Positions 4,607 through 5,930 of a stretch of 64,000 nucleotides of DNA are shown piece after piece (the stretch's first letter is position 1; every line of letters begins with the position of its first letter). The stretch is taken from NCBI GenBank assembly GCA_964016885.1, contig CAXHJY010001374.1:9766-73765 (forward strand). Direction: 5' to 3'. Below the pieces are notes generated by a model, which saw only the letters and a program-made list of their open reading frames with translations, had not been told where the DNA came from and ran no database searches. The position numbers were made by a program, and so were the translations under genes. Origin of the DNA: Eledone cirrhosa. Lineage: Eukaryota.

Positions 4607-5930
4607 AGAAATTGGAATAAATGCTCTGAAATAGCGATATATATGTGAATATAGACATAGAATATTCGAAAATATTCTGTATGTTTATAATAAACATTTT
4701 GAAGACCTAATCGCTATAGAATAGAATACGTCACGTATTACAATTAGATTCTCGATAAAAGCAAGGGAAGTAATCTACGCGTTTCATTCTTATTAGAAAT
4801 CTTCAGGACTACATATCCAGTGCTTTTATCGAGAATGACACAGCTAGAGACTTATAGAATACTTAGCTGTGTACAGGAACTGGTTTGAAAGAGCGGTTGC
4901 CGGTCCGGCAGAAATTAGAAATTGGAATAAATGCTCTGAAATAGCGATATATATGTGAATATAGACATAGAATATTCGAAAATATTCTGTATGTTTATAA
5001 TAAACATTTTGAAGACCTAATCGCTATAGAATAGAATACGTCACATATTACAATTAGATTCTCGATAAAAGCAAGGGAAGTAATCTACGCGTTTCATTCT
5101 TATTAGAAATCTTCAGGACTACATATCCAGTGCTTTTATCGAGAATGACACAGCTAGAGACTTATAGAATACTTAGCTGTGTACAGGAACTGGTTTGAAA
5201 GAGCGGTTGCCGGTCCGGCAGAAATTAGAAATTGGAATAAATGCTCTGAAATAGAGATATATATGTGAATATAGACATAGAATATTCGAAAATATTCTAT
5301 GTCTATATTCACATATATATCGCTATTTCAGAGCATTTATTCCAATTTCTACTTTCTGCCGGACCGGCAACCGCTCTTTCAAACCAGTTCCTGTACACAG
5401 CTAAGTATTCTATAAGTCTCTAGCTGTGTCATTCTCGATAAAAGCACTGGATATGTAGTCCTGAAGATTTCTAATAAGAATGAAACGCGTAGATTACTTC
5501 CCTTGCTTTTATCGAGAATCTAATTGTAATACGTGACGTATTCTATTCTATAGCGATTAGGTCTTCAAAATGTTTATTATAAACATACAGAATATTTTCG
5601 AATATTCTATGTCTATATTCACATATATATCGCTATTTCAGAGCATTTATTCCAATTTCTAATTTCTGCCGGACCGGCAACCGCTCTTTCAAACCAGTTC
5701 CTGTACACAGCTAAGTATTCTATAAGTCTCTAGCTGTGTCATTCTCGATAAAAGCACTGGATATGTAGTCCTGAAGATTTCTAATAAGAATGAAACGCGT
5801 AGATTACTTCCCTTGCTTTTATCGAGAATCTAATTGTAATACGTGACGTATTCTATTCTATAGCGATTAGGTCTTCAAAATGTTTATTATAAACATACAG
5901 AATATTTTCGAATATTCTATGCCTATATTC
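4607..5930. repeat. 310-bp tandem repeat arranged as a large palindrome, one HHR per unit (retrozyme-like)
   Basis: Units start at ~4607, 4917 and 5227 (partial). After an inversion at ~5290 come two reverse units. HHRs lie at 4772-4810(-), 5082-5120(-), 5457-5495(+) and 5767-5805(+): AGTC-CTGAAGA-TTTCT AATA AGAAT-GAAACGCGTA-GATT. Confidence 0.9.

Follow-up and report, generated by a model that had tools for sequence, protein, structure and literature searches.

The array lies in a 64,000-nucleotide stretch of an Eledone cirrhosa contig (CAXHJY010001374.1, positions 9,766 to 73,765), here called the window, a third of which is simple repeat. It consists of near-identical 310-bp units, as the first-pass annotation had it; its limits are corrected to about 4606-5940, where both ends blur into TA. 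TRF reports a period of 310 with 99% matches, with 2.2 copies spanning 4606-5298 and 2.1 spanning 5291-5940. These form inverted arms (4637-5286 and 5291-5940) of 650 pairs with 5 mismatches, joined by a 4-nt loop at 5287-5290, and each arm of the palindrome has two private substitutions. The unit is indeed non-coding: the longest stop-free frame in the concatenated unit is 59 codons. No ORF of 150 aa was found in 4606-5940, nor the RT plus GIY-YIG frame of an autonomous PLE, and no LTR pair is visible around the array in the window. The features are as follows.

4515 to 4605, no strand: left (TA)n run, presumed insertion target (TRF period 2 at 4515-4607)
4606 to 5288, minus: left arm, 2.2 units, hammerhead sense on the minus strand, 3′ end leftward
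4606 to 4636, minus: one-sided tail, left arm only, 31 bp (up to 40 with TA ambiguity), ending at unit position 5661
4770 to 4812, minus: type I hammerhead, predicted cut after 4776; 16-bp stem 4748-4763/4821-4836
5080 to 5122, minus: type I hammerhead, predicted cut after 5086; 16-bp stem 5058-5073/5131-5146
5279 to 5298, plus: inversion centre, the 310-bp unit's own 8-bp hairpin; loop CGAA on the plus strand, the unit's antisense form
5289 to 5940, plus: right arm, 2.1 units, hammerhead sense on the plus strand, 3′ end rightward
5407 to 5442, minus: decayed hammerhead-like segment, antisense to the intact one, in each unit; core lost, GACA for GAAA
5431 to 5519, plus: 16-bp stem extending helix I (5431-5446/5504-5519), predicted clamp on the ends of a released monomer
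5455 to 5497, plus: type I hammerhead, predicted cut after 5491
5492 to 5801, plus: cut-to-cut monomer, 310 nt
5570 to 5586, plus: the unit's other short hairpin, where another copy apparently folds back
5765 to 5807, plus: type I hammerhead, predicted cut after 5801; 16-bp stem 5741-5756/5814-5829
5931 to 5940, plus: right end, at the (AT)4 inside the unit (unit position 5623-5630), with microhomology to the target
5941 to 6047, no strand: right (TA)n run (TRF period 2 at 5931-6047)

Each unit holds one intact hammerhead, two on either strand, with four complete cores (+5461, +5771, −5116, −4806). A perfect 16-bp stem encloses the hammerhead at 4/4 sites (z = −6.9 for 5431-5520). These counts agree with the earlier description. 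Hammerheads do occur on both strands of the locus, as it also said, but within each arm they are restricted to a single strand.

Hammerheads and predicted RNA folds

The hammerhead comprises a helix I of 6 bp, the core CUGAAGA, a helix II of one U.U and 4 bp, and GAAA; its minimal helix III sits within the self-complementary hexamer ACGCGU. A loop-loop tertiary motif was looked for in PMC6155905 and not found. Our descriptor located 13 cores in the window, whereas each of 20 Markov-shuffled windows gave 0-1. Rfam gave no match at gathering score anywhere in the window and left the hammerheads undetected; its sub-threshold matches at 3900-8200 were only miRNA-like, to hairpins and TA runs. The short hammerhead fold (5453-5500) has an energy of −5.8 kcal/mol, yet is no better than shuffles (z = −0.6).

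The 310-nt monomer proposed earlier is borne out on paper, from the predicted cut sites, and has 34% GC. Its predicted circular fold is branched and 58% paired, with an energy of −67.8 kcal/mol (z = −5.0, 0/100 shuffles as stable). The monomer's ends are predicted to be clamped by helix I and the 16-bp stem (pairing probabilities 0.99 and 0.95). For 5420-5840 the minimum-energy fold is a double hammerhead (−110.7 kcal/mol) in which the 6-bp dimer helix III has p = 0.895 and the arms of the 16-bp stem swap partners. In the 5290-5940 transcript monomeric folds win and dimer helix III has p = 0.0. It therefore appears that the two forms are close in energy and depend on context. Dimer action of such hammerheads is established according to the available parts of PMC4209133 and PMC7229834. 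Of nine predicted Xenopus retrozyme dimers, one cleaved in vitro and eight did not (bioRxiv 10.64898/2026.07.22.740005, in excerpt). The context-dependent dimer fold and this low cleavage both count against the explanation that we prefer below.

Transcription in either direction had been expected to release the monomer. This is unsupported: the transcript of the whole palindrome is predicted to be 98% paired, with every hammerhead stem at probability 0.0. A transcript starting at the palindrome centre retains the hammerhead stems in the folding prediction. Read-through of the palindrome should thus be modelled as yielding a 650-bp hairpin rather than monomers, and monomer production would need transcription to start near the centre or inside a unit. 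Long dsRNA instead of circles is the predicted product of the palindrome, and inverted insertions may silence the family.

Insertion marks and neighbouring elements

The hammerheads face outward and the arms are thus head-to-head. The hairpin at the inversion centre is one of the unit's two most stable short DNA hairpins. The left arm reaches unit position 5661 and the right arm stops at 5621-5630, the internal (AT)4, so that end-by-end comparison leaves a one-sided extension of 31-40 bp. The flanks differ and are neither duplicated nor inverted; both are (TA)n, which makes unreadable any target-site duplication, in retrozymes longer than 4 bp when present. The array thus combines head-to-head inversion and a junction palindrome with a tail in the 30-40-bp range and a (TA)n target, as PLE-type insertions do. 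PLE insertions are known from PMC3846280 and PMC8557442 to show head-to-head inversion, a palindrome at the junction and, optionally, a 31-bp tail; self-priming on an antisense template is also proposed there. In assays in vitro, AT-rich DNA is nicked on both strands by a PLE enzyme, whose synthesis begins at two internal sites of the RNA, the limits of the tail, with hammerhead cleavage unneeded (PMC11167929). A literature search on fold-back mechanisms in PLEs returned nothing specific.

The plus-strand loop reads the antisense CGAA and the strand starting at the tailed end is therefore the antisense strand, which we infer from the sequence to be first-strand cDNA. Its start, 5661, is 170 nt downstream of a cut site, and two cut sites are spanned by the arm; the template would thus have been a circle or an uncleaved multimer, never a cleaved linear monomer. 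Rolling reverse transcription by a PLE RT had been suggested for the array. PLE mobilisation is supported and, given the head-to-head arms, the tail and the insertion into TA, better evidenced than it was; copying of a circle is indistinguishable here from copying of an uncleaved multimer.

We consider it probable, at about 0.7, that the array is a young insertion of a 310-bp repeat of the animal non-LTR-retrozyme type, written into (TA)n in one event by a PLE enzyme. Tandem copies would be transcribed, and neighbouring hammerheads would pair through the palindromic helix III and cut out the 310-nt monomer, whose ends, held by helix I and the 16-bp stem, would be favoured for ligation to a circle. 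A PLE endonuclease would nick (TA)n and the RT start inside the unit at position 5661, copying across two cut sites of a circle or uncleaved multimer. The cDNA would fold back at the unit's own hairpin and be copied back, and the copy would join the other TA end at the internal (AT)4, 31-40 nt short, which would leave the tail. The centre would be explained equally well by two cDNAs, one primed from each target end, that annealed at the hairpin.

The array does lie next to a PLE 3′ end, as had been noted: the PLE copy at 2907-4514 is separated from it by a 91-bp TA run. A role for this PLE as a meaningful partner is unsupported, its 3′ UTR having no homology to the unit (p = 0.64 and 0.11), and the PLE was rejected as the source of the unit. 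Under our preferred explanation the adjacency reflects shared TA targeting. The element (39-4514) is of Neptune/Nematis type and forms an inverted pair whose arms are 94% alike, unequal and non-mirror. The longer copy is on the minus strand (RT 2456-1005, frameshifted) and a 5′-truncated copy on the plus strand (2907-3914), the latter encoding GIY-YIG with the CX4CxxC linker of Neptune/Nematis type. The RT is nearest to Octopus vulgaris proteins (63-65%, best 3 of 95 matches), which makes a cephalopod host probable. The hammerhead of this PLE (about 4257-4300) has a long helix II and a short helix I and is of the PLE minimal type.

No homology was found between the unit and three PLE 3′ UTRs in the window, two of Neptune type included. 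When the unit was compared with 12 other window segments on both strands, 4/24 comparisons gave p<0.03, the p-values being inflated for sense-strand matches, which include the constrained hammerhead core. One of the four is with 7800-8000 (p = 0.02) and the other three are with a TA-embedded hammerhead repeat with a fixed 3′ end, which we call family B (7200-7483, 44661-44920, 55126-55315 and 58569-58701; cores at 7423, 55260 and 58574 on the plus strand and 44788 on the minus strand). Family B and the unit have the helix II sequence in common. At 55126-55315 family B forms a small head-to-head palindrome, the short arm of which ends at an internal TA-like tract. All four B hammerheads match the unit's antisense strand at 5407-5442 (24-27 of 36 nt, null mean 18-19, p<=0.007), as against none of six control hammerheads. 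This decayed segment overlaps the 5′ arm of the 16-bp stem. Unit 5408-5486 also aligns in one piece across both halves of the B palindrome at about 55210-55285 (50/79 columns, p = 0.004). These tests were picked after a first hint and their p-values are optimistic; the positional agreement is specific. The unit probably descends from an older B-like head-to-head insert of PLE type, one hammerhead having decayed into an arm of the 16-bp stem, and the fossil antisense hammerhead thereby suggests a birth route for such a unit.

The B 3′ end weakly resembles the 3′ UTR of a coding element at 47705-48529 on the minus strand (p = 0.01 in 1/5 comparisons), which has a GIY-YIG frame with the CxCX5C, CxxC and CxH motifs of the Hydra clade and ends in a 2-kb TA run. 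PLEs of this clade are reported with hammerheads and (TA)n insertion in the consulted part of PMC8557442. A Hydra-type PLE as helper is a lead suggested by sequence, not a result. No helper PLE was matched, and the unit is tied to a coding element by a weak chain that runs through family B; both points count against the insertion reading.

Several other TA-embedded inserts of the window are likewise inverted repeats. Palindromic inserts between TA runs occur at 43335-44092 (with a hammerhead-like core at 43810), 51759-52120, 52832-53100, 18791-18900, 25281-25338 and 12143-12210; those at 18791 and 25281 are copies of one family with different centres. A hammerhead family with a long helix II and a palindromic helix III is present at 9654-9855, 11659-11948, 12923-13124 and 15643-15939, and also at 28838 and 34384; the four copies within 9.6-16 kb are in inverted and direct arrangement. 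A 10-base motif recurs at 25397, 44702, 47764, 55166 and 58651, close to where three families (B, the Hydra-type 3′ UTR and the 18712/25281 family) are joined to TA; the 310-bp unit lacks this motif, which is possibly a shared recognition signal. A second PLE family at 55941-58237, in nested direct and inverted fragments, has about 61% aa identity to 2907-3914 and a 3′ end 85% like 4430-4506. Pfam identifies non-LTR retrotransposon frames with an APE-type endonuclease and RT at 59073-63929 on the minus strand, and a separate non-LTR RT fragment at 25588-26772, also minus. The right flank of the array (6048-6270) holds broken reading frames, which we take to resemble the C-terminus of an RTE-type LINE protein. 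A domesticated regulatory switch was considered for the array and rejected, as no gene context was found and the repeat is dispersed and young.

Copies of the unit in sequencing runs

Of 24 public runs listed for the unit, 20 carry 54-81% of 37 sampled words, under 18 organism codes and from 17 studies; no RNA runs are among the listed carriers. One monomer (5530-5839) was compared with four of the 24. In X1, a public run that may not be of the window's species, 574 contigs match the unit, 337 of them at 99% or more. The head-to-tail unit joint has a summed depth of 25,093 there, and the depth ratio of 25,093 over 29-79, about 300-900, is an order of magnitude only, summed contig depth not being equal to copy number. 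Among the X1 loose ends listed (6/22), TA stands behind unit position 5630 in nine contigs, behind 5661 in one and before 5592 in one. Positions 5630 and 5661 are the window's two array ends, 31 nt apart; both ends recur independently of this locus, joined to TA. With 574 contigs and at least 10 TA-junction contigs, the unit is present in many copies at many loci in X1, whichever species that run represents. In one X1 contig the loose end before 5570 is the reverse complement of 5587-5597, which resembles a fold-back at the second hairpin. No strand-switch joint at the window's centre is among the X1 loose ends listed (6/22), and the X1 word share of 0.81, against 0.83 from a plain monomer, has no excess that would mark the palindrome centre. 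That the switch was not found in the reads or contigs listed is a point against the preferred explanation.

The same observations bear on whether the palindrome is real. A genuine tandem unit with a palindrome created by a fold-back read or by assembly seems highly improbable to us. PLE inverted structures are known to trouble assemblies (PMC8557442, in part) and the centre is not seen among the listed X1 ends, which would fit such an error; the arms, however, end at different, independently recurring positions and carry two private substitutions each, the flanks differ, and a read artefact would mirror the flank as well.

Short hairpins and TA runs favour fold-back repair. This counts for a purely local history, in which unequal crossing-over or slippage multiplied a single copy on the spot and fold-back at the DNA level later inverted the array, with no RNA multimer, a route proposed for retrozyme arrays in the available text of bioRxiv 10.64898/2026.07.22.740005. 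We regard it as quite improbable here: the array ends differ by a tail of PLE size and both recur as TA junctions in X1, and the flanks are neither duplicated nor inverted.

It is also unlikely, although somewhat less so, that the unit is the pseudo-LTR or 3′ repeat of a coding PLE outside the window and that this copy is its 5′-truncated inverted insertion. The insertion marks match those of coding PLEs, and the helix II sequence shared with family B points the same way. Two X1 contigs run behind 5687 into about 126 unrelated letters, for which a secondary insertion or a longer element is possible. The X1 share continuing into unlike sequence is, however, 0 and the unit-to-unit joint dominates. 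The unit's hammerhead has the canonical 6/4/1-2 bp layout of retrozymes, as against the minimal type of the adjacent PLE, and neither Neptune-type 3′ UTR of the window is homologous to the unit.

Four of the five variable positions listed for X1 are within the hammerhead (5775, 5778, 5785 and 5786), at a free core position, at the helix II base, where an A-U pair is restored, and in loop II. At 5775 and 5785 the alleles found in the window account for 20% and 32% of the depth in X1, yet all four units have them. Minority alleles that are uniform across the units suggest one template per insertion; the support is modest, as the mirrored arms amount to about two independent units.

Two runs with other organism codes, X10 and X12, each yielded one closed, flank-free contig (340 and 331 nt, depth 34 and 10). 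Each has three differences from the monomer, all within the hammerhead, fold-compatible and present in X1 too, and a word share of 0.72 is that expected of a whole monomer with three hammerhead changes. In X23 (raw Hi-C, organism B) 0 of 12,836,656 reads fell on the unit, with no control stretch and hence no test of absence; X21 and X22, from the same sample as the carrier X20, have almost none of the words, and this does not prove absence. Exact patterns of the unit matched nothing in JGI metagenome contigs or IMG/VR. A vector origin was unsupported, blastn of plasmids and phages giving no match. The likeliest source of near-identical monomers under 18 organism codes is trace carry-over or closely related hosts.

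The alternative is that the monomer is also a mobile or infectious circular RNA, or a DNA circle, moving across species, with arrays as its reverse-transcribed footprints; we think this very unlikely. The spread of the words over 20 runs and 17 studies, the closed contig in both of the other-organism contig runs compared and the decayed antisense hammerhead are in its favour, as is the description of retrozyme repeats as species-specific in the accessible part of PMC7229834. Traces of a host that has tandem copies by the hundred, whether DNA or RNA, would however also assemble as a closed contig at depths of 10-34, be it through carry-over, index hopping, diet or relatives. Each X10 or X12 difference also occurs in X1, the antisense strand has no intact core, and the metagenome and virus contigs gave no match. 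Equally improbable is the full form of this idea, in which a 310-nt circle arose from a head-to-head insert of PLE type, circulates among animals as a viroid-like RNA and was written into a cephalopod-like genome by Penelope enzymes. If true, such a circle would be an animal counterpart of retroviroids, linking retrozymes and infectious circles; it would be nearly unchanged among species, varying only inside the ribozyme and carrying a fossil antisense ribozyme. The cross-organism signal would be far more surprising if it were not carry-over.

Comparison with known systems

The assignment to the non-LTR retrozyme type, proposed in the first-pass annotation, agrees with every sequence property that we compared. 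The unit is 310 bp with 34% GC, where retrozymes have 150-450 bp and less than 50%; a type I hammerhead below −5 kcal/mol recurs in at least two consecutive units (Li et al. 2026), here two per arm; its layout is the canonical one described in the consulted part of PMC4209133 (helix I 6 bp, helix II 4 bp, helix III 1-2 bp, palindromic loop); and a protein-coding frame is absent. The array is thus of retrozyme type by sequence, with self-cleavage and a circular RNA predicted; contigs cannot separate a 310-nt circle from a tandem repeat. As described by Cervera & de la Pena 2020 (PMC7229834) and by Li, Clavereau & Pollet 2026 (bioRxiv 10.64898/2026.07.22.740005), animal non-LTR retrozymes share with it the tandem non-coding unit, low GC, the single type I hammerhead and the co-occurrence with PLEs. 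Two axolotl hammerheads that act as dimers (PMC7229834, in part) are close in build, HHR_Amex2 having the same U.U at the base of helix II and HHR_Amex1 the same minimal palindromic helix III. The unit differs from retrozymes in its decayed antisense hammerhead and in occurring almost unchanged under many organism labels. Retrozyme arrays that are inverted, tailed and targeted to TA were not found in the main texts of PMC7229834 and bioRxiv 10.64898/2026.07.22.740005, whose supplements may hold cases, and no open-access paper was found that combines 'retrozyme' with 'head-to-head'. No cephalopod retrozyme was found in the open literature, and the consulted part of PMC13282606 is without the word 'ribozyme'.

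Viroid-like hammerhead circular RNAs (excerpts of PMC7761336) are of the same size, and the predicted stable circle and the closed contigs in two runs resemble them. The unit differs in having an intact ribozyme in one polarity, no intact hammerhead core being found on its antisense strand, where viroid-type RNAs have ribozymes in both, and in its branched, 58%-paired fold. Viroids also lack a DNA counterpart, whereas the unit has the genomic copy here and TA junctions in X1.

Chlamydomonas MRC1-like non-autonomous PLE derivatives resemble the 3′ end of their helper (PMC8557442, in part), whereas here none was matched; most Chlamys elements are without hammerheads according to the same excerpts. 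Endonuclease-containing PLEs (PMC3846280, PMC8557442 and PMC11167929, each in part) have the same head-to-head arms with 3′ ends outward and a junction palindrome, the same 31-40-bp tail at one end, an AT-rich or (TA)n target and a start inside the RNA, not at the cut. The array differs from them in lacking an RT/GIY-YIG frame, in arms that are multimers of a short unit and in a hammerhead that is canonical, not minimal.

Mobilisation of retrozymes by PLEs has already been proposed, the earlier case for animals being co-occurrence, a shared ribozyme type and pLTR similarity; the inverted, tailed array in (TA)n is what this locus adds. Two models compete for retrozyme arrays, one in which a circle or multimer is copied and one in which a single copy is amplified locally. 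Here a multi-unit array has PLE end marks at either side and its ends recur at other loci, which argues for insertion of a ready-made multimer. The array also provides exact coordinates for two sites of RT start or joining, two fold-back hairpins and a predicted dimer-dependent cut.
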